Source: an uncultured delta proteobacterium
GTDB taxonomy: Bacteria; Desulfobacterota; RBG-13-43-22
Reading direction: 5' to 3'
Length of the DNA: 64,000 bases
Assembly: GCA_963711835.1 (NCBI GenBank)
Contig: CAVQFQ010000004.1
Location: 160,001 to 224,000, forward strand
Below, one piece after another: positions 3,567 through 35,821 of this stretch (position 1 is the first letter of the stretch; every line of letters begins with the position of its first letter). The notes below the pieces were generated by a model that saw nothing but the letters and a program-made list of their open reading frames with translations, was not told the DNA's origin and did not search any database. The translations under genes were made by a program, and so were the position numbers.

Positions 3567-3606
3567 GCGTCATTGGTAAGATCCTTTCCTTTGTCTACAG
3601 ACCCAT

Positions 3607-3659
3607 AGCGCAGCAGGGAATCCCGCCCTGGTAGCCCCGGGGAAAAGCCGGCCAGGCCC
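3607..3659. repeat. 53-bp direct repeat, copy 2
   Basis: 48/53 ungapped identity to 2714-2766. Confidence 0.9.
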
Positions 3660-3785
3660 GGATCTGCTTGACCTTGCAAATTCTTGCCTAAGCCTGTGGA
3701 CCTTGTAAGGGGATTAAAGTAAAGGTTCACTTAAGGCCCATTTTATAATAGGATTAAGTTAAAATTTTGAAGGGAGGAATTAACC

Positions 3786-5284
<1,499 letters not shown>

Positions 5285-5395
5285 TCAAAGGATACCCATT
5301 TCTTAGAGGTATAGAGCATTATAGCCGTAACCAAAGCAGCGAGTCACTACCAGCCTGTCGAATCTTGTCAGTTACAAAGAAGATTTGAAAGTCTT

Positions 5396-5448
5396 TTTGC
5401 CACGGACCCACGCAGACAAAAGTGGACGATTATTTTTGCCTGTTCGAC
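5396..5448. repeat. Solo arm of the MITE-like element at 35822-36025
   Basis: 47/53 identity to the reverse complement of 35973-36025; all differences are transitions. Confidence 0.85.
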
Positions 5449-5484
5449 ATATTTCTTGGAAAAAAGTCAAACCAAGCCAAATGG

Positions 5485-5676
5485 TTATAGGGTTGGTTCG
5501 GACTTCCCGGTAAAAAAGTGGATCAAAAAGTCGCAGTCTTTGGGGGAGAGATCAAAATTTTTACCGGCCTCCTCTATCAGCGTGACCAGGGATGCCCCAG
5601 GGGCGGATTCCCGCTGTTCGCTGATCCAGCGGACGGCCTTGCGCAGGATGGAGCCTTCAGGCAACTTAACGGTCAT
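5485..5676 (-). CDS. Small conserved hypothetical protein
   Basis: PEGSILRKAVRWISE...LIEEAGKNFDLSPKDCDFL; purine-rich AAAGGAG upstream. Confidence 0.7.
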   Translation of the reverse strand: MTVKLPEGSILRKAVRWISEQRESAPGASLVTLIEEAGKNFDLSPKDCDFLIHFFTGKSEPTL

Positions 5677-5761
5677 AAGCTATTCGGGTTCTCCTTTACC
5701 AAGAATGGGCCGGATCCCAAGACCCGGATAGGTTTCAACAACATGGGAATCCTTGGACCTT

Positions 5762-5789
5762 CAGGCCATCGGCCTTAGCCGATGGCCTG
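5762..5789. repeat. Perfect 12-bp hairpin downstream of the enoyl-CoA hydratase
   Basis: CAGGCCATCGGC-ctta-GCCGATGGCCTG; no U-tract. Confidence 0.7.
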
Positions 5790-5792
5790 TGA

Positions 5793-6557
5793 TTAGGCTT
5801 CCTTCCAAACCGGTTTCCTCTTATCCAAAAAGGCCCTCAGGCCTTCTTCGGCATCCCGGGTCTTCATCAATTCTTTCAGATAGATCTTCTCGATGGCCTG
5901 CAGCCCCTGTTCAGCCGGGTCCATCAACCCGGCCAGGAAGGCCTTTTTGGTCAGGGCCAGGACCAAACCGCTTAAGGGTAAAAATTTTTCTAAAAATTTT
6001 TGGAGCTCTTCTTCCAGTTGGTCAGCCGGGACGACTTTATTGATCAGCCCCAGTGAAAGGGCCTCCTGGGCCTTAATGGTTTCTCCGGAGAGGACCAGCT
6101 CCAGGGCCTTCTTTCGAGCCGTCAGCCGGGGAAAAATTAAAGCGGCTATAGGCGGGAAGACGCCCACCTGAATTTCGGGCTGTCCGAATTTGGCCTTTTC
6201 CGAGGCAATCACCAGGTCGCAATACAAGGCCAGTTCACAGCCCCCCCCCAGGGCCGCGCCCTGGACCGAGGCCACGGAGACAGCCGGTAAGGCATCCATA
6301 CGCCGGAAGATGCCGTGGAAGACTTCAATCATTTCCTCCACCTGGTCCCCCAAATGCTCGCCCACATCCACCCCGGCGGAAAAGGCCCTGCCGGCAGCCT
6401 TAAAGAGCAAGAGTTTTATTTTTTCATTTTTTAAACCATCCAAGGCCTGGTTGATTTCTTTCATCATGGCGATGTTAAGTACATTGAGCGGTTCCCGGTT
6501 CAAGGTAATAACGGCCAAGCCGTCTTTCAAATCGGTTTGAATGTGCTGATACGACAT
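5793..6557 (-). CDS. Enoyl-CoA hydratase/isomerase, resembling cyclohexa-1,5-dienecarbonyl-CoA hydratase (Dch)
   Basis: FSAGVDVGEH, ALGGGCELA, FGQPEIQVGVFPP, IEKIYLKELMKTRDAEEGL. Confidence 0.85.
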   Translation of the reverse strand: MSYQHIQTDLKDGLAVITLNREPLNVLNIAMMKEINQALDGLKNEKIKLLLFKAAGRAFSAGVDVGEHLGDQVEEMIEVFHGIFRRMDALPAVSVASVQGAALGGGCELALYCDLVIASEKAKFGQPEIQVGVFPPIAALIFPRLTARKKALELVLSGETIKAQEALSLGLINKVVPADQLEEELQKFLEKFLPLSGLVLALTKKAFLAGLMDPAEQGLQAIEKIYLKELMKTRDAEEGLRAFLDKRKPVWKEA

Positions 6558-6603
6558 GTGCTCCTCCTTATGAATTCTTTTTTCTTTTCTCTTCGATCCC
6601 GGA

Positions 6604-7690
6604 TTACTTATTTTTCAACCATAAAAAGGCTTCGATAAAGGGATCAAGGCCGCCGTTGAGGACCTCGTCCACATTCCCTATTTCCAACTGGGTCCTGTGG
6701 TCCTTGACCAGGCGATAAGGGGCCAGGGTATAGGAACGGATCTGGCTTCCCCAGGCAATCTCGGCCTGGCCCTCGTGGATGCTCTTCTTCTTTTCCTCTT
6801 TTTTTTCCATTTCCTGCTCGTAAAGCCTGGACTTTAAGACCTTGAAGGCCATATCCTTATTTCGATGCTGGGACTTCTCGTTCTGGCATTGAACCACAAT
6901 GCCCGTCGGAAGATGGGTCAGCCGTACGGCCGAACTGGTTTTGTTGACATGCTGCCCCCCGGCACCGCTGGCCCGGAAGGTATCTACCCGGACATCGGCT
7001 TCGTTTATTTCGATCAGGATATCGTCTTCTATCTCGGGATAGACAAAAACCGAAGCAAACGAGGTATGCCGCCGCCCTCCGGCGTCAAAGGGAGAGATGC
7101 GGACCAGGCGATGGATCCCGGTCTCGGAACGCAGATAGCCGAAGGCATATTTCCCTTCCACGGTAAAGGTCACGCTTTTAAGACCGGCTTCATCCCCGGG
7201 CAGGCTGTCAATGATCTCGGCCTTAAACCCTCGCCGCTCGGCCCAACGCAGGTACATGCGCAGCAGCATTTCAGCCCAGTCCTGAGCCTCGGTCCCTCCG
7301 GCGCCGGCATGGATGGCCATGATGGCATTATTGATATCCTCTTCCCCGGAGAGCAGTTTATTGAATTCCATCCGGGATAAAAGCTTTCCCAGTTCCTGCA
7401 AGCGGACCTGGACCTCTTTCAAGGTTTCCTGGTCCTCTTCAGCCACAGCCAAATCATGCAGGATCTCGGCCTCTTCCAATCGGGTCCGGGTCTGCTCCCA
7501 TTCCCCCAGAATTTGATTTAGTTTTCCCCGTTCCTTCAACAGCACCCTGGCCTGGTCGGGATTCTCCCAGAAATTTTCCTGGCCGACCGCCTTTTCCAGG
7601 GCCATCAATCGCTCCCGTTTGGCGGACAGGTCAAAGATAGTCCCCCAATTTCAACAATTTCTCTTTGGAGCGGTTGATTTCTTCTCTCAT
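6604..7690 (-). CDS. prfB: Peptide chain release factor 2 with programmed +1 frameshift
   Basis: MREEINRSKEKLLKLGDYL then CTT TGA C at 7630-7636; the shifted frame contains SPF and GGQ; 361 aa in total. Confidence 0.97.
7630..7646 (-). promoter_or_regulatory. prfB autoregulatory frameshift site
   Basis: GGGGGACTATCTTTGAC: internal SD-like G-run followed by CUUUGAC. Confidence 0.93.
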
Positions 7691-7764
7691 TTTAATAATC
7701 CTTTCTCTTGAAATGGCATCGCGGGACACCTTACTGGAAGCAAGGGGCTGTTTCTGGATGACCT

Positions 7765-21061: not shown

Positions 21062-21826
21062 CTAATCGGAATCCAATTGGGTTCCTTTTTTCAGATGAAT
21101 AAAAAATTCTTTATTCCCTTTGGCCCCCAGAAGAGGGGACTCGACCAACCCGAGAACCTCCAAACCCAGGTCTTTAAAAAAAACGGTTAACTCCTCGACC
21201 ACCTGGGCCTGATCCTCCGGATTTCGAACAATCCCCCCTTTACCCACTTTGCCTTTGCCCACTTCGAATTGGGGTTTTATCAGGGCCACGATGGATCCGG
21301 TGGACCTGATGAGCGGAAGCAAGGCCGGGATCACCAGTTTCAAAGAAATGAAGGAGGTATCCACTACCGCCAGGTCCGCCGTCTCACCAACCTCCTGCGC
21401 CTCCAAAAAGCGGACATTTTTCCGTTCCAGGACTCGAACCCGGGGATCCTGCCGGACCTCCCAGGCCAGTTGTCCGTATCCCACATCAACGGCATGGACC
21501 CGCTTGATACCCTTCGTAAGAAGGCAGTGGCTAAATCCTCCGGTAGAGGCCCCGATATCAAGGGCCACCTTACCGCTGACCGCCAGGTTAAAGGCCTCCA
21601 GGGCCTTTTCCAATTTTACCCCGCCCCGGCTGACATAAGGGGATTCCGGTCCCTTCACCTCCAGCGCCGCTTGAGGATCCACCGCCCGACCGGGTTTATC
21701 CATGGCCTGCCGGTTGACCAATACCTTTCCGGCATAAATCAAGGCCTTGGCCTTCTCCTGACTGGAGGCCAAGCCTCTTTCGACTAACAATCGATCCAGG
21801 CGAATTTTAGGACTTTTTATGGGCAG
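21062..21826 (-). CDS. tlyA: TlyA-family rRNA methyltransferase (start uncertain, overlaps dxs end)
   Basis: RLDRLLVERGL, YVSRGGVKL, DIGASTGGF, LIKPQFE, GNKEF. Confidence 0.92.
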   Translation of the reverse strand: MPIKSPKIRLDRLLVERGLASSQEKAKALIYAGKVLVNRQAMDKPGRAVDPQAALEVKGPESPYVSRGGVKLEKALEAFNLAVSGKVALDIGASTGGFSHCLLTKGIKRVHAVDVGYGQLAWEVRQDPRVRVLERKNVRFLEAQEVGETADLAVVDTSFISLKLVIPALLPLIRSTGSIVALIKPQFEVGKGKVGKGGIVRNPEDQAQVVEELTVFFKDLGLEVLGLVESPLLGAKGNKEFFIHLKKGTQLDSD

Positions 21827-23735
21827 CCACCTCTTCCTGTAAGACGTGGAAAATTCCCTCCCCATCCAGGCCATAGAGGTTCCGGATCTTTTTAGGAGGT
21901 CCCTGCTCCACAAAATGATCCGGGATACCCAGAGAACGAACCCGGATCCCCCGGCAGCCCAATTGATGCAAGCGCTCCATTACCCCGCTTCCAAAACCAC
22001 CTTGGATCATATTTTCCTCAACGGTAACCAGCAGGGAAAATTTTTCATTCAAGGAAGCCAGCATAGCATCATCCATGGGTTTAATAAATCGGGCATTGAT
22101 GACTGAGGCCGTTTGACCTTGAAGGGCCAGGCGTTCGGCAGCCTCCAGGGCCGGATACACGCTCTGGCCTACGGCCAGGATGGCCAGGTCCTCCCCTTCC
22201 CGAAGCCGCTCCCATTGGCCTAAAGGGACCGGTTGAGGATCCCCAAGGAGTGAGACCCCCAACCCGGGGCCCCGAGGGTACCTGATGGCCACCGGTCGAT
22301 TATAGGCCAGGGCGGAAAAAAGCATATCCCGCAATTCCTTTTCATCTTTCGGGGCCAGGATGGCCAGATTCGGCAGGGGTCTGAGATAAGACAGGTCGAA
22401 AAGCCCCTGGTGCGTGGGACCGTCTTCGCCCACGATACCGGCCCGGTCCAGGGCCAGGATAACCGGCAGATTGGGCAGACAGACATCCTGGATAATCTGG
22501 TCATAGGCCCTTTGAAGAAAGGTGGAATAAACGGCCAGCACCGGTTTCAATCCTTCCAGGGCCAGGCCGGCGGCAAAGGTAACGGCATGTTGTTCGGCGA
22601 TCCCCACGTCAAAAAACCGCTGGGGAAACCGCCGGGCAAAGGCGGTCAGGCCGGTCCCTTCCCGCATGGCGGCGGTAATGGCCACCACCCGAAAATCCTT
22701 CTCCGCCAACTGAACCAGGGTCCGGCCGAAGACCTCGGTATACGAAGGAGGGCCGCTGGTTTTGGTGAGGCTGGGGTCCTCGGCCTTGACGTCAAAAGGG
22801 CCCACCCCGTGGAAAAAAGTCGGGTTTTTCTCCGCCGGCGGAAACCCCTGGCCTTTACGGGTCAGGACATGGACCAGGACCGGGGCCTCTATGTGGCGGA
22901 TATTTTCCAGGGTCTCAATCAGGGCCTCCAGGCGATGGCCCTTGATGGGTCCGACGTAATCAAAGCGCAAGGCAGCGAAAAGCATCCCCGGGGTAAAAAA
23001 ACCGGTAAAGGAGTCCTCGCTCTTTTTGGCCCACTGCAGGATATTTTCACCGATCCCCGGGATCGATTTAAAGAAGGATTCCATCTCCCGCTTAAACTGG
23101 ATAAATCCCTTGCCGGTCAGGCGTTTGCTCATAAAGGAAGATAAGGCCCCCACATTGGGGGAAATGGACATCTCGTTGTCGTTTAAAACCACGATCAAAT
23201 CCTTGTTAAGATGGCCGGCCTGGTTCAATCCTTCAAAGGCCTCCCCGGAAGTCAGGGAGCCGTCTCCGATAACGGCGATGATCTTGGCCTTTTCGCGCAT
23301 CAGCTCTTTGGCCGCGGCCAGCCCCACCCCTACGGAGATGGAATTTCCGCTGTGGCCGGTGTCGAAGACATCATGGGGACTTTCTGCCCGCTTCGGGAAA
23401 CCGCTTAAGCCTCCAAAAGTCCTCAGGGTGGGGAACTGCTCCCTCCGGCCGGTTAAGAGTTTATGGGTATAACATTGGTGGCCCACGTCCCAGATAATCT
23501 TATCCTGAGGGCTGTTGAAGACATAATGAAGGGCAATGGTTAATTCCACCACTCCCAGGTTGGGGGCCAGGTGCCCTCCGTTCTTAGCCACCGTCTCAAT
23601 GATTACCGAGCGGACCTCCTGAGCCAGTTCCTTGAGTTCCAGGATGGAAAGGTTCTTCAGGTCAGCCGGCCCTAAGATCCGGTTCAGTATTTTTATCGGT
23701 TGGTTAACGACGGACAATTTATCTTCCTGAATCAT
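21807..23735 (-). CDS. dxs: 1-deoxy-D-xylulose-5-phosphate synthase
   Basis: GGHLAPNLG, WDVGHQ, IGDGS, GIAEQH, DRAGIVGEDGPTH. Confidence 0.97.
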   Translation of the reverse strand: MIQEDKLSVVNQPIKILNRILGPADLKNLSILELKELAQEVRSVIIETVAKNGGHLAPNLGVVELTIALHYVFNSPQDKIIWDVGHQCYTHKLLTGRREQFPTLRTFGGLSGFPKRAESPHDVFDTGHSGNSISVGVGLAAAKELMREKAKIIAVIGDGSLTSGEAFEGLNQAGHLNKDLIVVLNDNEMSISPNVGALSSFMSKRLTGKGFIQFKREMESFFKSIPGIGENILQWAKKSEDSFTGFFTPGMLFAALRFDYVGPIKGHRLEALIETLENIRHIEAPVLVHVLTRKGQGFPPAEKNPTFFHGVGPFDVKAEDPSLTKTSGPPSYTEVFGRTLVQLAEKDFRVVAITAAMREGTGLTAFARRFPQRFFDVGIAEQHAVTFAAGLALEGLKPVLAVYSTFLQRAYDQIIQDVCLPNLPVILALDRAGIVGEDGPTHQGLFDLSYLRPLPNLAILAPKDEKELRDMLFSALAYNRPVAIRYPRGPGLGVSLLGDPQPVPLGQWERLREGEDLAILAVGQSVYPALEAAERLALQGQTASVINARFIKPMDDAMLASLNEKFSLLVTVEENMIQGGFGSGVMERLHQLGCRGIRVRSLGIPDHFVEQGPPKKIRNLYGLDGEGIFHVLQEEVAAHKKS

Positions 23736-23737
23736 GG

Positions 23738-24652
23738 CTAACGATCACGGGTTAGGACGTAAGAACCCACCTCCATTAAGGGGATGGCCCTTGGGCCGAA
23801 AGGGCTCAAGGCCTGGTTGGCCTGGGTCAGCAATCGTTCCGCCGCCTTCCGGGAACCATCCAAACCGACCAGGGCCGGGTAGGTGGCCTTTTTCCGCCGG
23901 GCATCGGTCCCGATGCCTTTACCCATCAGGTGGGCCTGGCCTTCCACGTTCAAGAGATCGTCTTTGATCTGGAAAGCCAGCCCAATTCTTTGGCCGAATT
24001 GCCTCAAGGCCCGCAGGTCCCCGGCCTTCCCTCCTCCCAGGATCCCGCCGCAAACCACTGCGGCCGCTATCAGGGCGCCGGTTTTATGCTGATGGATAAA
24101 ATTAAGAAAGGGGAAAGCCACCTTTTTCTTTTCCCCTTTAAGGTCCGCCTCCTGTCCGGCCACCATGCCTTGGATGCCGGCCGCCCGGGCGATTTCCCGG
24201 ATGACGGCTATCCGCTTTTCAGCCGGGACCGTCTTCATCACCTCCCGGCGGCTTAAAAGGGCAAAGGCTTCGGTCAGCAAGGCATCTCCGGCCAGGATGG
24301 CCGTAGCCTGGCCGAATTTTTTATGGCAGCTCTGCTGGCCTCTCCTGAAATCGTCGTTATCCAGGGCCGGGAGGTCGTCATGGATCAGAGAATAGGTATG
24401 GATATATTCAAAAGCGCAGGCCGCCGGCAGGGCCGTGACCCAGCGCCCGCCCACCGCCTGGCAGGCCAGGAGGCACAGGAGCGGCCTCAGCCGTTTCCCT
24501 CCGGCGAAGAGGCTGTATTCCATGGCCCAATGAACCCGGTCAGCGTATGGGCCGGGTTTCGGAAAGTACCGGCGCAAAGCCTCATCAACCCGTTTCTGAT
24601 AAAGAGCCATTTTGGGGGGTGCGGCACCAGCCAAGTTATTCCTCTTCCTCAT
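23738..24652 (-). CDS. ispA: Farnesyl/geranylgeranyl diphosphate synthase
   Basis: GGKRLRP, HDDLPALDNDDFRRG, KTGAL, FQIKDD; xseB-ispA-dxs order. Confidence 0.93.
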   Translation of the reverse strand: MRKRNNLAGAAPPKMALYQKRVDEALRRYFPKPGPYADRVHWAMEYSLFAGGKRLRPLLCLLACQAVGGRWVTALPAACAFEYIHTYSLIHDDLPALDNDDFRRGQQSCHKKFGQATAILAGDALLTEAFALLSRREVMKTVPAEKRIAVIREIARAAGIQGMVAGQEADLKGEKKKVAFPFLNFIHQHKTGALIAAAVVCGGILGGGKAGDLRALRQFGQRIGLAFQIKDDLLNVEGQAHLMGKGIGTDARRKKATYPALVGLDGSRKAAERLLTQANQALSPFGPRAIPLMEVGSYVLTRDR

Positions 24653-24872
24653 CCAAAGGAAAGGGCTGGGTTTTCAGACTCCCGTCCTCGGACTTGATCA
24701 GCAACTCCACCTTCTTCTGGACCTCGGTCAACTTCTGGGAACAGAGTTTCGAAAGACGCATCCCCTCTTCAAAAAGTTTGAGAGACTCCTCCAGGGAGAG
24801 ATCCCCGCCTTCCATCTTGTTGACAATGGCTTCCAGTTTCTTGAAGGCCTCTTCAAATCGTTCCTTTGACAA
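24636..24872 (-). CDS. xseB: Exodeoxyribonuclease VII small subunit
   Basis: FEEAFKKLEAIV..LSLEESLKLFEEG. Confidence 0.95.
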   Translation of the reverse strand: MSKERFEEAFKKLEAIVNKMEGGDLSLEESLKLFEEGMRLSKLCSQKLTEVQKKVELLIKSEDGSLKTQPFPLDEEEE

Positions 24873-26232
24873 AATCCAACTCCTCCTTCTTGTGGGTCTT
24901 CTCTACCCGGCAATCCATTTCGCCACGGGCCAGGATTACCCGGATGGCCTGTCCGGGCTGGACCGCCTCGGCATCTTTTACTAGTTTCAAACCGGGCAGG
25001 GTTTGGGTCAAGGCATAGCCCCGCTCCAAAACATTCCAGGGACTAAGGGCCTGAAGGGCCTTTCCCTGGGTCTGGAGACCCATCCCCAGTTTGTTGATTT
25101 GCTGGGCCATGAGATGCTTCAACCTGGTTGTGGTCAGCTCCAGATGGCTTTGGTTTGTCCGGACCTGAACCAGAGGATTCAGTCCCAGGATCCTTTCCCG
25201 GACCCAGCGAAGTCCATCGGTTCGGTTCCTTAGATGGATGACCAATCCTCTTCGAAGTCGTTCTGAATGATCATCCAGCCGCAGGGCCAGGTCGGCCAGA
25301 CGCCGTCTGGGATCCCCCAACCGTCTTTGGAAATAGTGCAGTTTTTCCCAGCGAAAACGCAGGGCCTGTTTCAATCGATAGGCCAGCCGGTTTTCAAGGT
25401 CTTCAATTTTTTCCTCCCATTCGGCCTGGGGACGTATCAATAATTCAGCGGCCGCTGAGGGCGTGGAGGCCCTGAGATCGGCTGCGAAATCAGCTATCGT
25501 AAAATCCACCTCATGGCCGATAGCTGAAATAACCGGAATGGCCGATGCCGCAATGGCCCGGGCCACCCGTTCTTCGTTGAAGGCCCAAAGATCCTCGAGT
25601 GAGCCGCCTCCCCTGGTCAGGACAACCACCTCAAGGCCCAGGGAAGACCGGTTCAACATGGATAGGGCCTGGGCAATCTCATGAGAGGCCGTCTCCCCCT
25701 GAACCAGGACCGGAAAAATGAAGACCTGAATGTTCTGAAACCGGCGGTAGAGGACCCTCAAAAAATCCCGGATGGCCGCCCCGCTGGGCGAGGTGACCAC
25801 GGCTACGGTGCGGGGAAGTTCGGGGATCGGTTTTTTCCGGGCCTCATCAAACAGCCCCTCATCCAGGAGGCGTTGTTTCAGTTTTTCAAAGGCCAGCTGA
25901 AGGGCCCCCCAGCCTTTCAACTCCATCCTCTCCAGTATGATCTGGTATTCTCCCCGGCCGGCATAGACGCTCAAGCGGCCCTGGCAAAGGACCTGAAGGC
26001 CATCTTCCGGCAGGAAACTCAAAGAACCCTGGCTGGACTTGAAAAAAACGACCCGGATCTGGCTGTTGGCGTCCTTTAAAGAGAAATAATAGTGGCCGCT
26101 GGGGGGGACCCGAAAATTGGAGATCTCCCCCTCTAACCAGACCAGGGGAAACTCCTCTTCAAGCAGGTCCTTGATCTCCCGGGTCAGTTCGGAGACCGTA
26201 TAGATTTTTTGCTCGTAGTCCGTCCGGGTCAC
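24853..26232 (-). CDS. xseA: Exodeoxyribonuclease VII large subunit
   Basis: GEISNF, SGHYYFSLKD, RGGGSLEDLWAFN, IGHEVD, LERGYA. Confidence 0.96.
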   Translation of the reverse strand: MTRTDYEQKIYTVSELTREIKDLLEEEFPLVWLEGEISNFRVPPSGHYYFSLKDANSQIRVVFFKSSQGSLSFLPEDGLQVLCQGRLSVYAGRGEYQIILERMELKGWGALQLAFEKLKQRLLDEGLFDEARKKPIPELPRTVAVVTSPSGAAIRDFLRVLYRRFQNIQVFIFPVLVQGETASHEIAQALSMLNRSSLGLEVVVLTRGGGSLEDLWAFNEERVARAIAASAIPVISAIGHEVDFTIADFAADLRASTPSAAAELLIRPQAEWEEKIEDLENRLAYRLKQALRFRWEKLHYFQRRLGDPRRRLADLALRLDDHSERLRRGLVIHLRNRTDGLRWVRERILGLNPLVQVRTNQSHLELTTTRLKHLMAQQINKLGMGLQTQGKALQALSPWNVLERGYALTQTLPGLKLVKDAEAVQPGQAIRVILARGEMDCRVEKTHKKEELDFVKGTI

Positions 26233-26586: not shown

Positions 26587-27495
26587 TCAGGATGCAAAGA
26601 AAATAAATCCCAAATTCCGGAATTGAGAATCCTGTCCATTGCTTTCAACTTCCCGACAATCAAAAATTACCGGGACATTCTGTTCACCGGCCAGGGCCTT
26701 TATCCTTTCGAAAATTCCCGGGGACAGGCGTTCCATTGAGAACCTCCGCCTGCAAACGCCGCAGGTATAGCTTAAGTTGAGTACATAGGCATCGACGACC
26801 CCTTCCAGCAGGCTCAGAGCCGAGGGAGAGGCCAGGTACGGGTAATTCCAAGCCAGAGGGACCTGCCAATCATCCGGCGCCTGCCTCAAGAATGTAAAAA
26901 TGGACGGCAAGGATCCTTCAAGGTTTCCGCCATTAAAATACAGGAAGCGGACTTCTCCCCTATTGAGCTTTTTCCAAAGATGATGATCCAGGATGGCCTC
27001 AAAATCCGCTTCCCGATCAGGCACTGTTTCTTTTTGACAGGAACGACAGATAGCTACTGAACCGGCCAGGTTGATAATCCAGGCCGGGGACAACGGCGAA
27101 TCCGGGCTCTTGGATATGGAAACGTCCGATATTTTTGCCTGCCAGCCTGCACCGCAAATGCTTGATTCCCACCGGGTCCGGTCCGACCAGCATAGCCGCC
27201 AACACAAAGAACAGTTCTTCAAAAAGTGATGGAGGATCTCGATTTTCAAGTCCAGGAGCGAGGCCTCCCCCTTCCTGCAGGAGGTCAAACCTATTTCCGA
27301 ACGAAATAAGGTCATCAACTCATCATGAAGGTCCAAAAGCACATGCAGCGATTTACTTTTAATTTTTTTCAGACCGAGGCCGCAGGTTATTCTCTTGATT
27401 TCTTGGAATCGGGGCAGATTTTTAAAAGGCGCTCCATTTTTCAGGCAGCGCCTGGAAAACGGTCGGAGTAGGTCAATCTCTGCTGACTTCTTCAT
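26587..27495 (-). CDS. Degenerate PflX-like protein (radical SAM superfamily relative, incomplete CxxxCxxC)
   Basis: SLLDLKIEI..LKNCSLCWRLC..R....ICG and LLEGVVDAY resemble PflX; the cluster motif reads GSVAICRSCQ; ATG 27495 has GGAAGGA upstream. Confidence 0.6.
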   Translation of the reverse strand: MKKSAEIDLLRPFSRRCLKNGAPFKNLPRFQEIKRITCGLGLKKIKSKSLHVLLDLHDELMTLFRSEIGLTSCRKGEASLLDLKIEILHHFLKNCSLCWRLCWSDRTRWESSICGAGWQAKISDVSISKSPDSPLSPAWIINLAGSVAICRSCQKETVPDREADFEAILDHHLWKKLNRGEVRFLYFNGGNLEGSLPSIFTFLRQAPDDWQVPLAWNYPYLASPSALSLLEGVVDAYVLNLSYTCGVCRRRFSMERLSPGIFERIKALAGEQNVPVIFDCREVESNGQDSQFRNLGFIFFAS

Positions 27496-27589
27496 GGGTT
27501 CCTTCCCCCGGATAAAAAGGGAAGGCAGGGCCGAGATGGCCCTGCCTGGTGAGTCGCCAGATAACACTATTTTTTAATCTTCAGCCCGA

Positions 27590-28303
27590 TCACTTGCTTC
27601 TTTCATTCGGGTTAAAAAACCATCTGGGCCCTACAATCTTCATGTTAGTACCCGAACTGCTGCAGATTCTCTCCAACACTTTAACTGGACCTGGAACAAT
27701 TCCAATACCTGGATAAGGAAAATTATAAAAATCGACCGTCTCCACGTTCGTCTCCGTGTCGCTTCTAAGCGCTAAGATATTACCCATGGTGCCGAGAAGT
27801 TGGCCCTTCGAGCGAACACCATTTATCACCATATAAAATTCGGGGGGGTAAGGAGGTAAAGTGAAAGGGCCCGCTGATGGATCAATTCTACAGTCGCCCT
27901 CGCCTTCAGTCGACAGATCATGGTTGACCTTGTAGGTTCCCCGGCATTCCATGTCGTACTGGGACACGGGGGATTTCAAAGGGGCCGTACTACCGACGGG
28001 ATCGTGGGTCAAGGACAGAACCTGCCCCCGAAAGGTATATCCTCCGTGGCCGTCATAGGAAGTGACTCCCTGGGATGAGCCACTGACCATAACCGAGGTC
28101 AAACCCGGTGGGTCAGGGTTGCGGTTTAGGTCCTGATCAAAATTCCCGTAGGCCGAGGCACAGACGAAGGACATATTCGACGCGTAGTCCCCGGTGAGCA
28201 GTCTGTTCAAGTCCCACGCCCCGGCCGGGGCGGCAATAAACACAGCCAAGAGCGCGATGGCGGCGGTAATAAAGCAAACCTTTATTCCTTTTATTTTATT
28301 CAT
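27590..28303 (-). CDS. Secreted hypothetical protein, beta-rich, 4 Cys in the mature part
   Basis: Signal peptide MNKIKGIKVCFITAAIALLAVFIAAPAGA; AAAGGAG SD. Confidence 0.75.
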   Translation of the reverse strand: MNKIKGIKVCFITAAIALLAVFIAAPAGAWDLNRLLTGDYASNMSFVCASAYGNFDQDLNRNPDPPGLTSVMVSGSSQGVTSYDGHGGYTFRGQVLSLTHDPVGSTAPLKSPVSQYDMECRGTYKVNHDLSTEGEGDCRIDPSAGPFTLPPYPPEFYMVINGVRSKGQLLGTMGNILALRSDTETNVETVDFYNFPYPGIGIVPGPVKVLERICSSSGTNMKIVGPRWFFNPNERSK

Positions 28304-28376
28304 GATGCTCTCCTTTCATAAGTCCATCTAAGGTTACTGGTATCCAACAACTCCCCTGCCGACACAACCAAGCCCC

Positions 28377-28616
28377 TCACCTCCTTTCCTCTTCCCTCCG
28401 AGGGTGCGTCATATTGTCATTTATAAATGTCCCTTTTTCTGGAGAATCGGCATCTGCCGATTCCCCGGGTGAATTTAAGATTTCCCAGAGCTCATCATAA
28501 CTCTGGAAGGCTTTTTTCCCCTTTTTCCCTGTCTCAAGCACGACCCCTACCAGACTTTTGGGATGGTCCTTCTCAAAGCGGTAGATCCGGATGATGTAAC
28601 TGGCGACAAAGTTCAT
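28377..28616 (-). CDS. Small hypothetical protein (SYIIRIYR...LVGVV...AF.SYDELWEIL)
   Basis: 79-aa ORF with GGGG SD-like sequence, co-oriented between the regulator and the secreted protein. Confidence 0.7.
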   Translation of the reverse strand: MNFVASYIIRIYRFEKDHPKSLVGVVLETGKKGKKAFQSYDELWEILNSPGESADADSPEKGTFINDNMTHPRREEERR

Positions 28617-28734
28617 ACTGTGCCCCCAAGAAAAGAACCAACAGGCCTTCTTCGCCTAAATCTGCGGATCCCCGGAAGACCTGACGGATGATATTTTTGG
28701 TTTTAAATATAGAATGAATTATTCTTTTGTTTCT

Positions 28735-28768
28735 TGAATAACACGGGGGTTGTTACAGATATGGTACG
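28735..28768 (-). promoter_or_regulatory. Candidate SARP-type operator/promoter
   Basis: Minus strand reads cGTACCA-tatct-GTAACA (11-bp period), then 10 nt, then TATTCA; no TTGACA. Confidence 0.45.
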
Positions 28769-28823
28769 GATTGGGGGGGGATAAAAATTTTGGAGGGGGT
28801 TCGAAAGAGTTATTTTACCGTTC

Positions 28824-31800
28824 TTATGGCGCAGAAGCCAGCAGGCTGTCCCGTATGGCCCTGGTTTTAGCGGCGGGTGCGATATCCAGTTCCTTTTTGA
28901 GCCTTTTCTCAAAACTTTTGTATAACGACAGGGCCTCGGCCTTCAAATCCAGGTTCCGGCAGCAGACCATGGCTCCCTGGCAGAACTCCTCGGCCAGGTT
29001 GTCGACCTCGAGGCCTTTCTGATAACATTCCCGGGCCTTTTCCCACTCTCCGTCTTTGCTCCAGTAGGAACCCAACTTTTCCACCCCGCGCAGGAACTTG
29101 CTGCGCAGCCTTTCACCGGCAGCCAACAGCCAGGATTCCTCCATCTCCCGGCCCATAAAATAGCCCTGGTAAAAACCGACGGCTTTTTCCAGAAGCGGAA
29201 CAGCGGCCCCGGGATCGCATCCATCGGCCTCTCCCAAAAGCCGTTCAAAGGCCCAGGCATCGATCCAGCAAAGGCGATCGTCAAGAGACACCCGCCTTTC
29301 CCTGACCTTAACCGTATCCTCCCTCCCGGCGAGGCTACGGAGACGGTGCAGGGTGGTCCTCAGCGACTGGAGTGCCGCATCGCCATCGGCCTCCGGCCAG
29401 AGGGCATCGGCCAGTTCCTCATCCCGGGTGCCTCTGACCCCGGCGGCAATCAGGGCCTGGAGCAGTTCGAGGGGCTTTTTCTGGGCCTTGCGGGAAAAGC
29501 GGAGGGGCTGCCCATCTTTATAAATGACGAATTGCCCCAAGGTAGTCACCTTCAGCGGCCAGGGCCAATTTTCCAGATGGACCGGAGGATTTTCCGGCAC
29601 CAGTCTTCTCCGGCGGATGATTTCCTGGACGTATTCCACCTCGATCCCCTCTTCCAGCGCCTTCTGGCAGAGAAAGGCGGTATCGGCCGGACAATCAATG
29701 AAGGTATTCAATAACCTCGCTTCTTTCCCCAGGGCCAACGCCTCCCGGAGAGACCTGAGGCCCTTGTTTTCCTCCCGGTTCTTGAAGGCCAGATGGGCCT
29801 GCTGCAGCCGGGCGTTGAATTCCAGGAATAGGCTCTTGATCTGCCGGGAGGAGGCCAGGCCCTGGGAAAGGTATTCCCGGGCCTTGTCATCCTTCCCGCA
29901 ATGATTCAGGATGGCGGCATTCAACAGATAGGCGGACCCGATAATGAACGGAGCGCCGGTGTCGATCGCGAACGCGAAGGGCTTGTTCCCCATGGATAGC
30001 CGCCTGATCGTATTTCCCGAGAATAAGTTCTTCTCTGGCTAAACCGACATAATATATGTTTTGATCACGGGTGGCCATTGCCTTGTTTTCCATTCCCGGG
30101 CTGGTCATGGAAGTGGATAACCGGTTAATGAAAAGGCCCGCCTTTTCGGTGTCATTCATATTCAGTGAATTCTGAATGGCGTGGAACAGTATAAAATCGT
30201 CCAGAGAATGAAACCCCAAGGCTCGAAAAAACTCGAGACCCTCGTGAACGGACTTCTGGCATTTTTCAGGGAAACCCGCCACCTCAAAAAACAATGCCTC
30301 TCCCGAGTAGCCCCAACCACGAATGGGCGACCGAATTTCCAGGGTCTGCGTCAGTGCGCTGAGCATTTCCAGCGCCAGGGTGGCCTTATCAAAACGGCCG
30401 GTGTAGACTCCATAAAGCACCAGATGGAATAGAAGCATCATTCTTTCAGTTTTAAATTCAGGGGCCTCCGTCAGGGCCAGAGCGCGATCCGCCCATTGTT
30501 CTATCTCCGGATGACCCGACTGTCTCTGGGCCAACGCCGAAAACATGGACGTTGAAACCAGAGCCCCTATCCAGGGAGAAGGAAATTCCTGGAAGGGATC
30601 CCGGATATGAAGTTTAAGTTCATCAATCCAACGGTCCAATTGATCATACCCTTTAATGCAGTGAATGATGACCCGAATGACACTGCTCCAGGCCAGCAGC
30701 ATCCCTGCTATCTCCCCCTCTTGCTTGAATTTTTCATAAGACCGCTCCAGGAAATCACGGCTTAAAAGCAGATCAAGAAAACTCCCCGCTGCCCCTTTCC
30801 AGAAAAGAAGCCAGGCATCCTGTTCAATCAGATCGCTTGGCAGCCCGTCCAACCATTCGGCCAGCAGATTGAGCCTTCCCTGCAACGACAGGGTCGAAGC
30901 CTGTTGGAGGATGATCCGTTTCATCATTTCCCGGTCCTCGGCTTCCCGGGCCAAAATAAAGGCTTCTTCGATCTGTCCGGCTGTTTCCAGCAGATGAACG
31001 GCCCTCCGGTTTAAGTCCATGAACATATCCGGAGAGAAATGCACCTTAGCCTGCTTTCGCAAAAAGGTCCTGAACAGGGGGTGATACTGGTAAACCGGCT
31101 CTTTTAGGGATCGCTGATCGATGAAATAATTGTTCCGCATTAACCCGGCCAGGATGGAACCGGCCTGGGCAAGGCCGCTCAGCGTTTCCGCCATTCCGAC
31201 GGTCATTTGAGGCAGGATAGCCGTCCGGAGGAGAAAATCTTTTGTCTCCGGACTGGTTCGGTCGAAAATCTCCTTTCCAAAATATTGGATGATCCCCTCC
31301 TGGGAGGTATCACCAACTTTCCCGGGGAAGATCCCCTGCCTGAGGCCTTGCAGTATCAGGATCAACCCGGCCGCCCAGCCGTCAACCAAAGCGTGCAGCT
31401 GCCGAATCGTTTCCCCTGGAAGATCCCGATCGGGTCTCAATCTGACGATCTCCACCGATTCTTCCAAGGTCAGGCGCAGATCTTCCCAGGTCAATAGAGC
31501 CAATTGTTGATTCGCCTGGAGCCTGATCCATGATGGAGGGGGGGCGCCCCGGCTGATCAGCACCAGGTGCATGCCCGGGGGGAGTTCATTCACCCCCAGC
31601 AGAATGACCTCCTGGACTATCGAATCCTCCGGAATGAACTGGAAATTGTCTAAAACCAGAACCGTGCCGGGTTTTAAGCTGCTGAAGGCTTCCTTGAAAA
31701 AACGCCGGGCAAAGGCAGGTATGTCCTGGAGATATTCCGGAGTTAACAGGGACAGGGGTTTTTTTCGACGGGGATAGGCCTCGTTAAAAGAGGACCCCAG

Positions 31801-32055
31801 GTGGTAGAAAAAGGTGGCCGGGTCCTTATCGGCCTCTGCTACCTGGTACCAGAGGTTGGGAATTCTCCGGTCTTGCAGATAGGAACTGACCAGGGTCGTC
31901 TTGCCGCTGCCTGCCGGCCCGGAGACCCAGATGACCGGCCCGTCTTGAAAACGGTCCAGTCGCTCAAACAACCGCTCCCGGAGAACGGCTTTCCGGATGA
32001 CCGGCCGGCTGCCTCTTCTTGGAGAGATCCTTTTGGAGGAATTATTAACAGGCAC
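28824..32055 (-). pseudogene. MalT-like STAND ATPase-TPR-wHTH-BTAD (SARP-type) regulator with one +1 frameshift near 29976 (real or sequencing error)
   Basis: GPAGSGKTT, VLVLDNF, GWAAGL, YQYHPLFR in 29887-32055; TLGQF, LADALWPE..LRTTLHRLR and BTAD helices in 28824-29993. Removing one base joins EQAL to AFAIDTGAP, giving 1076 aa. Confidence 0.85.
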
Positions 32056-32147: not shown

Positions 32148-32582
32148 TCATGTATTCAATCGTCCATGACGGCCGCGATTTAATTTTTTGATTGTAATAA
32201 CACCTTGAAGCTGAAAAAGTTCGGGGTCTCCAGTCACAAGGATAGCCCCAAGTTGTTTGGCTTCAGCGGCGGCAAAGGCATCGGCATAAGAAATGGCATA
32301 ATCCATTTTAAGGGCGGCCGCCGCCAAAACCGTTTTGTCGGTCGCCGGACGGATGGTTAAAGGCAGTCGATAAATGTTTTTTAATGTATCCTCGGCCTCG
32401 TTTCGACCTTTTTCTTTCCCGATCCGATAATAAATTTCCCCTACATTAATGATGGAAATGAAAAGATCCGCCTTTCGATCCAGGCCTTCTTGAAGCAGTT
32501 TACGAACTTGCGAGGCAGCCGGTTCTTCCTTCTGGAGCAGGGCCAAGAAAGCCCAGGCATCAAGAAGATAGATTTTGCTCAT
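32148..32582 (-). CDS. vapC: VapC-family PIN toxin
   Basis: YLLDAWA, NVGEIYY, SYADAF, LVTGDPE. Confidence 0.9.
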   Translation of the reverse strand: MSKIYLLDAWAFLALLQKEEPAASQVRKLLQEGLDRKADLFISIINVGEIYYRIGKEKGRNEAEDTLKNIYRLPLTIRPATDKTVLAAAALKMDYAISYADAFAAAEAKQLGAILVTGDPELFQLQGVITIKKLNRGRHGRLNT

Positions 32583-32811
32583 GTTGAATCTCTTGCCGGT
32601 GTTCTTTTTCTAAGGCACCAAGCAAGTCCGTCCCCGAATACCGTCCGTACAATTGATCAATCGGGGAAGACGCCGAGATCAATTCCAAGACAATTTTCTT
32701 TTCAACAACCTCAACGTGAAATTGAGTCCCGGTGCCCAAGGAAAGAGTCCGACGAATAGTCTTAGGAATGATCAGTTGTCCTTTTGATGAGAGTTTAGCT
32801 GTTAAAGCCAC
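32560..32811 (-). CDS. AbrB/MazE/SpoVT-family antitoxin
   Basis: AKLSSKGQLIIPKTIRRTL; overlaps the vapC start. Confidence 0.9.
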   Translation of the reverse strand: MALTAKLSSKGQLIIPKTIRRTLSLGTGTQFHVEVVEKKIVLELISASSPIDQLYGRYSGTDLLGALEKEHRQEIQHEQNLSS

Positions 32812-32957: not shown

Positions 32958-33779
32958 TTACCTTTTCAAGGCCCGGGCATAGGCCAAGACGGCCTGGACA
33001 TAATTATCGCAGTGGTTGTAGGCGTACAGGGCTTCCTTCTTCTTAGCCGAATCCTTCAGGGACCATCCGAACGACTTCAGGTAATTGGCCATGCTGGCCA
33101 AGGCATCGGTCAGATTGTCGAGGTCCACGATCCCGTCGTCGTTTCCATCCACACCATATTTTACATAGGAGGAAGGCACAAACTGAGGAAGGCCGAAGGC
33201 CCCGGCCCAGGAACCCTTGATGGAGAGTGGATCCCTGTTCTGCTCCCGGGAAAATCGAAGCAGCTGCCCCAGTTCCTCTCCGGCCCAGTCGGAACGCCGG
33301 TTTTCAATCAGGGCCATGGTCAGCAGGCTGTTGAATATGGGAGTGTTTCCCACAAACCGGCCGAAGTTGGTTTCGATTCGGAGGAGAGCCACCAGGACCT
33401 CCCGGCCCACCCCGTAGGCAGACTCGATCTTCCCCAGTATATGCCGGTTGTCTCGCATTACGTTTTTCCCCTGTTTCACCGATATTTTGGTGAGCAGTCC
33501 GAAACGCCGACTGGTGTAATCCAGCCCCTTACCCCTCCGCTCGACAATCTCCGGGTAGAGCGTCACCCGGGGATCAGAAAAAACCCGAGCGAGGTCCTCC
33601 TCCGACAGGCCACGCGCTTTGAGCCTTAATAGAAGATCGTCCAGCCTTCCGTTATCAGCCGAAACCGGGGCCGCCAGGCCGGCGGTGTAAGCGGCGATGA
33701 GCAGAAAAACGCTCAGGCAAAAACCCGCGATGTGGGAACCCCCCAGCCGATTTAAATAAGTCTGAATTTTCCACTTCAT
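32958..33779 (-). CDS. mltB: Lytic murein transglycosylase B family
   Basis: IETNFG, GSWAGAFGLPQFVPSSY, DGNDDG.VDL, SMANYL, YNH; ATGA overlap with oppF. Confidence 0.88.
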   Translation of the reverse strand: MKWKIQTYLNRLGGSHIAGFCLSVFLLIAAYTAGLAAPVSADNGRLDDLLLRLKARGLSEEDLARVFSDPRVTLYPEIVERRGKGLDYTSRRFGLLTKISVKQGKNVMRDNRHILGKIESAYGVGREVLVALLRIETNFGRFVGNTPIFNSLLTMALIENRRSDWAGEELGQLLRFSREQNRDPLSIKGSWAGAFGLPQFVPSSYVKYGVDGNDDGIVDLDNLTDALASMANYLKSFGWSLKDSAKKKEALYAYNHCDNYVQAVLAYARALKR

Positions 33780-34738
33780 GTCGCCTTGATCTCCTCAAAG
33801 AGCAGACAGCGGACACGGTGAGATGAAGAGATGTCGGTGAGAGGAATGGAACCCTCCCGGCATTTCTCCATGACTTGCGGGCAGCGGGAGGCGAAGCGGC
33901 AGCCCGGGGGCGGGTCAACCGGAGAAGGCGGCTCGCCCGGCAGGTGATGGAGGCCGCAGGGCCTGGAAGGATCCAGGGAAGGGATGGAGGCGAACAGGGC
34001 CTGGGTATAAGGATGCAGGGGTTGGGCGAATAGTTCCTCTGTAGGCGCCTCTTCCATGACCTGGCCCACATACATGACCAGTACCCGGTCGGCAATGTGG
34101 CGCACCACCGACAGGTCGTGGGCCACGATAAGATAGGAAAGAGAGAATTTTTCCTGAAGCTCTTCCAGCAGGTTCAGGATCTGGGCTTGTATTGAAACGT
34201 CCAGGGCCGAAACCGGTTCATCACAGACAATGAACGACGGCCCCACGGCCAGGGCCCGGGCAATGCCGATCCGCTGCCTCTGGCCCCCGGAAAATTCGTG
34301 GGGATAACGCGACCCGTCTTCCTGGGAGAGCCCGACAATATCCAGGAGCTCCCCTACCCTCTTCTCCCTTTTGGGTTCGCCCATGATGGCCAATCCCTCT
34401 CCGACGATATCCACAACCGTCATCCTTGGATTGAGGGATCCGAAGGGGTCCTGAAAAACGATCTGCATTCTCCCTCGATATTCTTTCAATGATTTCCGAT
34501 CAAGACCGGCAATATCATGGCCTTCAAAGAGGATGCTCCCCGCCGTAGGACGCAGTAGTCTGACCAGGCACTTGCCCACCGTGGTCTTGCCGCAGCCGGA
34601 TTCCCCAACCAGGGCCAGGGTTTCTCCCTTCCCGACCGAAAAGGAAACCTGGTCCACAGCCTTGACGTATCCGGCGGCACGGCCCAAAAGCCCGCGCTTT
34701 ACGGGAAAATACATTTTCAGGTCTTTGACCTCAAGCAC
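33776..34738 (-). CDS. oppF: Oligopeptide ABC transporter ATP-binding subunit (OppF/DppF)
   Basis: GESGCGKTT, FSGGQRQRIG, DEPVSALD, GCRFASRCP. Confidence 0.9.
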   Translation of the reverse strand: MLEVKDLKMYFPVKRGLLGRAAGYVKAVDQVSFSVGKGETLALVGESGCGKTTVGKCLVRLLRPTAGSILFEGHDIAGLDRKSLKEYRGRMQIVFQDPFGSLNPRMTVVDIVGEGLAIMGEPKREKRVGELLDIVGLSQEDGSRYPHEFSGGQRQRIGIARALAVGPSFIVCDEPVSALDVSIQAQILNLLEELQEKFSLSYLIVAHDLSVVRHIADRVLVMYVGQVMEEAPTEELFAQPLHPYTQALFASIPSLDPSRPCGLHHLPGEPPSPVDPPPGCRFASRCPQVMEKCREGSIPLTDISSSHRVRCLLFEEIKAT

Positions 34739-35780
34739 CCTTCCCTGCCTCTCCTTTCCCCGTGTCTCCGCATCTCACCCTCTCCGCGTCTCCCGTCCCC
34801 CGGGTCCCTCCTTCTCCGCAACGCACCCAGCAGGCGCAACCATGGCCCTTGTCAACTTCTACCAAGGGCGGTTCTTCCGTTCGGCATTGCTCGATGACCA
34901 GAGGGCAGCGGGTGTGGAAGCGGCATCCCGGGGGAAACCGCGTCGCTGAAGGGACGGCCCCGGCAATGGTATGAAGACGCCGACCGCGCTCCGCCCGGCC
35001 CGGCAGGCTCTTAAAAAGCCCCTCGGTGTAGGGGTGCAGAAAAGAAGTAAAGATCGAACGGCAGGGACCGGACTCCACCACCTGGCCGGCGTACATGACC
35101 GCCACTTCGTCCGCCATCTCGGACACGATACCCAGATCATGGGTAATGAGCAGGACGGCCGTGCCGCTCTCGGCCTGGAGGTCCTTGATCAGTCGCAATA
35201 TGCCGGCCTGGATGGTTACATCGAGGGCCGTCGTCGGCTCATCGGCTATCAGCAGGTTGGGTTTGAGGCACAAGGCCATGGCGATCATCACCCTTTGCTT
35301 CATGCCGCCGGAAAGCTGATGCGGGTATTGCTGCATCCGCTGGCGCGGGGCGGAGATCCCGACTTTGGCCAGATATTCCAGGGCAATCTTACCGGCCTCC
35401 CCCTTGCCCATGCCGGTATGGACACGCACGGCCTCCATGATCTGCCCGCCGATGGTGAAGACCGGGTTCAGGCTGGTCATGGGTTCCTGAAAAATCATCG
35501 AGGCCAGGCGGCCTCTGATATCGCGCAGCTCAACCTCGGGAAGGGAGACTATTTCCCGGCCTGATAAGGTTATTTTTCCGCCGACAATCCGGCCCGGGGG
35601 CGAAGGAATCAGCCTCAGGATGGAAAGGGCCGTAACCGACTTGCCGCAGCCCGATTCGCCGACCAAACCGATGGTCCGGTTTTTCCCCAGGCTGATCGAG
35701 ACCCCGTCCACCGCCCTGGCCACGCCGTCGCCGGTGTAGAAGTAGGTCCTCAGGTCTTCTATTTTCAGTACGGGTTCCAA
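34731..35780 (-). CDS. oppD: Oligopeptide ABC transporter ATP-binding subunit (OppD/DppD)
   Basis: GESGCGKS, LSGGMKQR, DEPTTALD, GCRFHTRCP; low-complexity C-terminal tail; start approximate. Confidence 0.9.
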   Translation of the reverse strand: MEPVLKIEDLRTYFYTGDGVARAVDGVSISLGKNRTIGLVGESGCGKSVTALSILRLIPSPPGRIVGGKITLSGREIVSLPEVELRDIRGRLASMIFQEPMTSLNPVFTIGGQIMEAVRVHTGMGKGEAGKIALEYLAKVGISAPRQRMQQYPHQLSGGMKQRVMIAMALCLKPNLLIADEPTTALDVTIQAGILRLIKDLQAESGTAVLLITHDLGIVSEMADEVAVMYAGQVVESGPCRSIFTSFLHPYTEGLFKSLPGRAERGRRLHTIAGAVPSATRFPPGCRFHTRCPLVIEQCRTEEPPLVEVDKGHGCACWVRCGEGGTRGTGDAERVRCGDTGKGEAGKGA

Positions 35781-35821
35781 TCGCTTCTGTCGGCCTCTCA
35801 AAAAAAAGGAAGAGAAAATAC

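Follow-up and report, generated by a model that had tools for sequence, protein, structure and literature searches.

A MalT-like regulator with a SARP output module

We analysed 64,000 nucleotides (the window) of contig CAVQFQ010000004.1 (assembly GCA_963711835.1), from an uncultured delta proteobacterium of the Desulfobacterota lineage RBG-13-43-22. The subject is a regulator gene of the STAND class and the short cassette beside it. On the minus strand, gene order is vapB/vapC, the regulator, an open reading frame (ORF) of 79 amino acids (aa), a 237-aa ORF, a PflX-like ORF and xseA (Table 1); xseA we name from our reading of its translation. An earlier description of the locus (the sequence-only reading) had four co-oriented genes inserted between vapBC and xseA. 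This is borne out by the ORF layout and by PIN and MazE/AbrB matches. The regulator is a real variant of STAND transcription activators that seems to be undescribed; its cargo varies and its predicted operator is well supported. What the sequences show directly is how the genes are built and linked, that the repeat and its spacing are conserved, that the cargo varies and that the small gene is under coding selection.

The N-terminal part of the regulator is MalT-like. Profile NF003420 matches residues 20-417 (E 1e-56) and the MalT chain of PDB entry 8bob also matches the 5' part (E 8e-28). The Walker motifs are intact, as in the P-loop NOD of MalT-clade STAND regulators. At 192 bits, the 5' ORF falls well under the 537-bit cut-off for MalT equivalogs. 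No Pfam match to a LuxR/GerE helix-turn-helix (HTH) was found in the regulator, which ends in a winged HTH (wHTH) followed by BTAD. The BTAD match to PF03704 is strong (70.6 bits, cut-off 22.1; E 2e-19) and the wHTH match to PF00486 is weak. Together with an alignment to AfsR, these identify an OmpR-type wHTH then BTAD, the SARP module. The domain order is the reverse of that in AfsR-type large SARPs, and NB-ARC reaches 16.3 bits, under its cut-off of 23.5. Residues identical to AfsR Q48, E68, D71, W74, E76, R87, T88, R92 and R94 are present in the wHTH. In AfsR, according to the available text of PMC10936776, T88 and R92 read bases, and D71 and E76 make polymerase contacts needed for activation. 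A MalT-like STAND/TPR protein with a wHTH-BTAD tail in place of LuxR, as described previously, is thus what NF003420, 8bob and PF03704 show.

Among 18 intact relatives, mean identity is 53% in the nucleotide-binding domain (NBD), 49% in the winged-helix domain and arm, 34% in the TPR, 58% in the wHTH and 51% in BTAD. Hence, the TPR sensor is the least conserved region. The regulators of loci L003 and L004 are 81-89% identical at both ends and 28% identical in the TPR. L003 joins L004-L006 with support of 100 in trees of the NBD and of the SARP part, whereas a tree of the central region rejects this grouping (approximately unbiased test, p-AU 5.9e-6; the group was chosen after the identities were seen). 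The sensor of the L003 regulator looks swapped; a chimeric assembly is a possible alternative. A second apparent mosaic is the L007 regulator (3551-6745), with its SARP part grouping with L011/L012 and its NBD and centre with other clades. At L018 (3912-5897), an open regulator frame of 661 codons lacks the whole TPR sensor, joins NOD to wHTH-BTAD and is accompanied by a perfect-consensus operator and a small gene. This may be a constitutive variant or an assembly collapse.

The regulator, small gene and operator are linked

Two sets of loci were used to examine linkage. After removal of near-duplicates, forward loci L001-L072 held 64 small genes, the window's included. Independent metagenome loci L145-L222 (78 loci kept of 228 confirmed stretches) held 54. 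Upstream of the small gene, a regulator was found within 4.5 kb in 50/63 forward and 30/34 independent cases; a small gene with less than 1.5 kb of flank entered the count only if a regulator was seen, which favours positives, and 1 and 20 were dropped. In the phylum, the small gene is present in 23/401 genomes and the SARP part matches 69/401 at E<=1e-10, distant forms included. Sources of L001-L042 are mostly metagenome-assembled genomes of Deltaproteobacteria, Thermodesulfobacteriota and Nitrospirota.

A reverse set, starting from regulators, was drawn from 30 returned loci and 40 hand-chosen regions. Behind the 44 close-clade regulators with at least 1.5 kb downstream we found a small gene in 15 cases, an operator in 26 and both in 14; 11 distant-clade regulators had neither. 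Operator-only loci number 12; in L105, L111, L113, L125, L126 and L130 a signal-peptide gene comes directly after the operator. On a tree of 45 rows, the small gene must be gained or lost at least 9 times (mean 13 and minimum 8 in shuffles). From these counts and changes, the core is regulator, operator and cargo, with the small gene as a common but optional addition. The small protein had been cast as the regulator's partner. An obligate partnership is rejected, since 12/44 regulators have the operator and no small gene, and only 15/44 have a small gene downstream.

Other arrangements were also seen. The same genome holds an intact 1099-aa STAND-BTAD paralogue (C21:282671-285970; L074), divergent from a lipoprotein-like gene; a genome search gave no small-gene match and no strong operator nearby. 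Distant-clade regulators in L143 and L144 (~7500-7750) have different 11-bp tandem repeats by eye, and L144 has a weak small-protein homologue (20.7 bits), divergent upstream.

A tandem 11-bp repeat precedes the small gene

A GTACCA-N5-GTAACA repeat had been pointed out between the first two genes. It is present as GTACCA-TATCT-GTAACA at 28767-28751, inside the predicted operator and ~55 bp past the regulator stop at 28824. A loose form of the pattern has 6 matches in the genome and the repeat by itself is weak evidence. Its conservation in relatives takes it beyond chance. An intergenic motif search of the kind proposed with the sequence-only reading recovered the repeat as two 11-bp units, conserved upstream. 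Unseeded expectation-maximisation on 57 upstream regions gave a tandem of two such units with a log-likelihood of 611, compared with 121 and 103 for shuffled controls. At 12 bits or more, the motif precedes 57/64 training genes (a circular count), 37/39 independent genes outside motif building (15/54 were dropped for short flanks) and 0/300 random windows. Hence, both supports of the sequence-only reading, linkage to BTAD regulators and conservation of the repeat, stand.

In a comparison of 94 operator sites, both units have a GT conserved at 99-100%, and the GTs are 11 bp apart. A T tract comes before, and TG then TA follow at a fixed distance. In regulator-picked loci, TG and TA occupy the conserved offset at 10/27 sites; any other single offset accounts for at most one. 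If TA is taken as -12/-11, the T's of the two GTs would fall at -38 and -27. The T's that AfsR R92 reads in the afs box are also at -38 and -27 in the available text of PMC10936776. Direct repeats 11 bp apart just before a -10, here placed by conservation, are the arrangement expected of a SARP target. Generic repeat finding did not pick up the operator and a sigma-70 scan called no promoter at the site.

Scanning the genome returned one strong operator site, this one, at 26.2 bits; the next scored 17.1 and 14 sites exceeded 14 bits. The operator is local, not global. Hence, the term regulon, used in the sequence-only reading, is too strong, and a multi-site regulon is rejected. In L124, where the small gene is divergent, the operator moves along with it.

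Operator bases may follow the neighbouring recognition helix. Of 81 regulator-operator pairs, all 22 with Glu or Asp at the R87-equivalent have G in at least one half-site, as do 7/59 pairs with a non-acidic residue. On the tree, at least 6 changes to or from the acidic state are needed. The pairing of Glu/Asp with G is what would be expected if an acidic residue read the C opposite. We consider this covariation suggestive only.

The spacer between regulator and operator seems to be an insertion hot spot. VapC/PIN homologues, 36-41% identical to the window VapC, occur in L018, L019, L035, L055, L180, L193, L207, L209 and L211, and several sit in this spacer. An extra gene lies between regulator and operator/small gene in L011, L012 and L017; the start of its product seems to resemble a FadL-like outer-membrane transporter.

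The cargo is variable and mostly signal-peptide-like

The next gene after the small gene is co-oriented in 49/58 cases (L001-L072) and 36/38 independent cases. Such genes are signal-peptide-like in 38/49 and 30/36 cases, compared with 379/1,617 ORFs on four contigs of this genome. Among 59 hand-picked downstream proteins, 29 match Pfam and 30 match nothing. Matches include FG-GAP/cadherin, fn3, PEP-CTERM, collagen, beta-helix, beta-propeller and RHS, along with S8 and M12 proteases and DctP and family-5 solute-binding proteins. Judged by these matches, the cargo families are mostly unrelated to each other. The variable secreted cargo suggested by the sequence-only reading thus finds support in the signal-peptide-like excess and the unrelated families. 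Signal-peptide proteins of ~160-175 aa with no Pfam match, often in tandem, recur in L010, L012, L015, L017, L019, L026, L034, L051 and L069 and are perhaps one cargo family without a name.

The cargo of the window is the 237-aa ORF, identified in the sequence-only reading as a signal-peptide protein and present as such. Relatives occur in 8/20 same-family genomes and 0/40 others. Its model, an eight-stranded beta-barrel with a mean predicted local distance difference test (pLDDT) score of 75.5 from 8 sequences, aligns with eight-stranded outer-membrane barrels (Z 13.7, root-mean-square deviation (rmsd) 2.0, 120 residues) and with soluble barrels (Z 9-11). The C-terminus is a variable polar tail, where membrane barrels have a C-terminal aromatic signal. 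The modelled barrel could be either membrane-embedded or soluble.

The small protein is conserved and may modulate the regulator

As the sequence-only reading stated, a 79-aa protein is encoded after the regulator, and dN/dS shows the gene to be coding. Median dN/dS is 0.15 over 439 unsaturated pairs from 98 sequences, with third positions the most variable. The gene is under purifying selection. The protein has 82 close relatives, and 3,604 by profile among 6,265 candidates. It matches nothing in Pfam or NCBIfam. The nearest family is DUF7889 (PF25417), which has 50 positions and no known function in the literature. DUF7889 does not match the window protein; 2/45 members of the small-protein family, both divergent, match it weakly (best 23.4 bits, below the cut-off of 27). 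Conversely, the only match of the DUF7889 profile across 201 genomes is a small gene of this family. In the ESM Atlas, unnamed clusters at 0.89, 0.87 and 0.86 (under 0.9), with Pseudomonadota, Thermodesulfobacteriota and Chloroflexota the commonest taxa, are leads only.

Two small genes or two whole cassettes stand in tandem in L007, L026, L051, L060 and L155/L156. Fusions of the small domain to longer proteins are rare (4 matches among 7,989 candidates scored). Two of these (ADC and a 1016-aa surface protein) were set aside as apparent read-through into cargo. The remaining partners, a receiver domain and a Usp domain, suggest a signalling module. At L053 (1504-2036), and in protein P0083, the small domain overlaps or is fused to a receiver-like domain; L053 has no operator or regulator nearby. 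In L108 the operator is directly followed by a Usp-like gene, and P0086 has the small domain fused to a Usp domain of similar kind.

MalT is controlled by protein inhibitors, MalY among them, according to the available text of PMC10427625. We tentatively propose that the small protein is a cytoplasmic feedback modulator of the regulator, since it is first in the transcript, cytoplasmic, independent of cargo and optional; we would not put this at even odds. The circuit may be right and the small protein something else. It is possible that it is a co-induced factor binding nucleic acid or polymerase, or a docking domain for other signalling proteins. Its model, three strands and a helix with core pLDDT of 66-81 by block, weakly resembles folds of the dsRBD/HicB type (best Z 3.4, rmsd 2.2, 46 aligned). 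The receiver and Usp fusions, copies such as that in L053 beside a receiver-like gene with no regulator, and the dispensability of the small gene in 12/26 operator-bearing loci favour such a role. Against it, the fold scores are at noise level, and most copies stand behind one regulator class with any cargo. Neither by fold nor by sequence did the PDB contain a significant match (best Foldseek E 0.99), which does not imply a new fold.

The PflX-like gene is probably a passenger

The last gene had been described as a degenerate PflX-like protein. This description is accurate. The ORF is 26% identical over ~200 residues to a radical-SAM protein elsewhere in the genome and keeps the N-terminal Cys cluster of such proteins. 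It differs from them in that the first Cys of CxxxCxxC is replaced, the C-terminal part is missing and an extra N-terminal region is present. Hence, it does not qualify as a radical-SAM enzyme, and it has no Pfam match. The label PflX comes from the sequence-only reading and from our own presumption; Pfam names the intact relative only Radical_SAM.

The sequence-only reading also counted this gene in the regulon. We find it improbable that the gene truly belongs to the cassette as a fourth member, making or modifying the inducing signal. In favour, the gene is co-oriented here and in L003, where it is intact and 80% identical, and the relatives that come next in identity (44%) also have STAND-BTAD genes beside them, in two genomes. 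However, a terminator-like hairpin precedes it, with a folding z-score of -1.8 in the window and about -4 in L003 and L004. Only remnants of 29-36 aa exist in L004, L146 and L148, the remaining loci showed no such gene behind the cargo, in L141/L142 it converges with other regulators, and its Fe-S/SAM motif is broken. We reject it as a core member; it is probably a local passenger, outside the cassette. In L142 (3971-10796), two tandem distant-clade STAND-BTAD regulators are convergent with a degenerate PflX-like gene.

By translation, both flanks are ordinary: dxs, ispA, xseB and xseA at 21807-26232, and an SLT_2 lytic transglycosylase with peptide ABC ATPases at 32958-35801. A phage element found no support; viral contigs gave 1 weak locus from 56 pattern matches.

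Table 1. Features of the locus, in window coordinates.
Feature	Position	Strand	Basis
vapB (MazE/AbrB)	32560-32811	-	Pfam match
vapC (PIN)	32148-32582	-	Pfam match
Regulator 5' ORF, 722 aa: MalT-type STAND NOD (Walker A/B), arm, most of TPR-like sensor	29887-32055	-	ORF, profiles
Region of single extra base (+1 frameshift)	29970-29983	-	alignment of relatives
Regulator 3' ORF, 389 aa: sensor end, OmpR-type wHTH and BTAD (SARP module)	28824-29993	-	ORF, Pfam
A/T tract upstream of operator, T-rich in relatives; possibly UP-element-like	28782-28791	-	
Predicted operator, two 11-bp direct-repeat units	28751-28772	-	motif discovery
Predicted weak extended -10, TG-n-TATTCA, at operator spacing conserved in relatives	28735-28743	-	
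79-aa small protein: conserved ~45-residue three-strand-plus-helix core, variable tail, no Pfam family	28377-28616	-	
237-aa signal-peptide-like protein, predicted eight-stranded beta-barrel, lineage-restricted cargo	27590-28303	-	
Terminator-like hairpin, 10 pairs and pyrimidine tail	27513-27547	-	matching hairpin after cargo gene in L003, L004
Degenerate PflX-like radical-SAM derivative, likely start ATG 27495	26587-27495	-	

The regulator gene of the window carries an extra base

The sequence-only reading presented the regulator as an intact ORF of 1076 aa. In fact, one extra base splits the gene into two ORFs, and we reject the single frame. The gene spans 3x1077+1 bases and five well-aligned of six aligned relatives are one base shorter near 29970-29983. 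Hence, the figure of 1076 aa is a silent read-through. The last ~27 residues of the 722-aa ORF are out of frame. Regulator frames of ~1,070-1,130 codons are uninterrupted in 19 loci of L001-L042; two others stop at 948.

Since the gene is frameshifted in the assembly, this copy is either mis-assembled or recently inactivated. For loci with both ends, regulators are broken in 4/9 cases in one assembly series and 1/21 elsewhere; assembly indels therefore do occur in this family. A frame-change check of 17 matched gene bins of the genome flagged 2, both in the regulator region. The sequencing runs contain at most 0.11 of the sequence words. Contigs from these runs are relatives, from another strain, and two are one base shorter across the frameshift region; they agree with an intact frame in relatives and have no bearing on error or mutation here. 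We lean slightly towards mis-assembly, with recent inactivation of this copy the possible alternative.

A model for activation of the cassette

We propose, with a probability of about 0.7, that the intact locus encodes a ligand-triggered activator that binds the adjacent repeat and switches on the small protein and secreted cargo. By analogy with MalT (PMC10427625), ligand at the variable helical sensor would open the NOD. ADP/ATP switching could then yield ATP-bound oligomers presenting two SARP modules to the two repeats, as MalT and AfsR suggest. These modules would recruit sigma-70 polymerase to the weak promoter in the manner of AfsR. The predicted transcript would carry the small gene and cargo and end at the hairpin; more speculatively, the small protein may then act as a cytoplasmic feedback modulator of the regulator.

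Could the regulator instead repress, by binding across the -35 and spacer and blocking the promoter until a signal releases it? The repeat does overlap the predicted -35 and spacer. However, the -10 is weak, no consensus promoter is called at the site and the polymerase-contact residues D71 and E76 are conserved. AfsR also activates from the same place, in the available text of PMC10936776. We regard repression as very improbable. Also very improbable is that a separate host-encoded OmpR/PhoB-type regulator binds the repeat and the STAND gene is a mere neighbour. OmpR/PhoB-type regulators also read 11-bp-period repeats near -35, the operator unit seems to resemble OmpR-family boxes, and 17/44 close regulators have no operator downstream. 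Nevertheless, each genome has a single strong site, beside the regulator, the operator is found with 0/11 distant regulators, and its bases track the neighbour's recognition helix, with weak phylogenetic support.

Several observations weigh against activation of the cassette by the adjacent regulator. The regulator is split in the window and no other matched gene of the genome has a frame change; true inactivation is thus possible. The wHTH alignment with AfsR is weak (E 0.004) and the -10 position is assumed from conservation. We noticed the covariation between helix and operator by eye before we tested it, and strong branches carry only 3 independent pairs (sign test p 0.25). Among close-clade regulators, 12/44 have an operator and no small gene downstream and 17/44 have neither; this last class includes L124, where both lie upstream in divergent orientation, and L112, which to the eye has a frameshifted remnant. 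The repeated changes in small-gene presence on the tree, and small genes with neither regulator nor operator (L053 and the upstream copy in L123), belong here too. Our signal-peptide rule is a crude hydrophobicity test, and some cargo is cytoplasmic (AMP-binding, 4Fe-4S, ADC and FMN-reductase genes).

Discussion

Most of what is known about SARP activation comes from actinomycetes, where the module is N-terminal; among Gram-negative STAND activators, MalT is the one chiefly studied. The family described here shares features with both. At the AfsR/afsS promoter of Streptomyces coelicolor, as at our locus, two 11-bp repeats in the same inferred register precede a weak -10. A wHTH-BTAD with conserved DNA- and polymerase-contact residues, a STAND NTPase with TPR and a small gene as target are also common to the two. 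Unlike AfsR, the regulator has a MalT-like NOD in place of NB-ARC, its repeat differs in sequence and its target includes variable secreted cargo. Its SARP module is C-terminal; that of AfsR and other large SARPs is N-terminal in the available parts of bioRxiv 10.64898/2026.09.02.748808 and, for large SARPs, PMC12692060. The resemblance to Escherichia coli MalT and LAL regulators lies in the N-terminal STAND NOD, arm, helical sensor and C-terminal DNA-binding output. Unlike those proteins, the regulator has a wHTH-BTAD output in place of the LuxR HTH, a hypervariable sensor and one adjacent cassette as its target. A literature search, with papers judged mostly by title and abstract, turned up no account of a MalT family with a C-terminal SARP, or of the cassette.

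A bolder proposal, which we think rather unlikely as a whole, is that these loci form a widespread one-component class. Here, a STAND sensor whose ligand-binding part is swapped by recombination would act through a self-specific operator, with a residue-to-base code, on any inserted surface or secreted gene. The small-protein family, several thousand strong, would bind the switch directly as a feedback regulator, with receiver and Usp fusions feeding signals in.

The family joins SARP-type activation with a MalT-type STAND switch. With an operator, a promoter and a target predicted, the circuit is directly testable in a laboratory strain. The operator shows where cargo genes begin that otherwise lack annotation, and the locus gives context to a nameless small-protein family of more than 3,600 clusters. 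It would also give a handle on the control of adhesin-like proteins, proteases and solute-binding proteins in uncultured Desulfobacterota and Nitrospirota.

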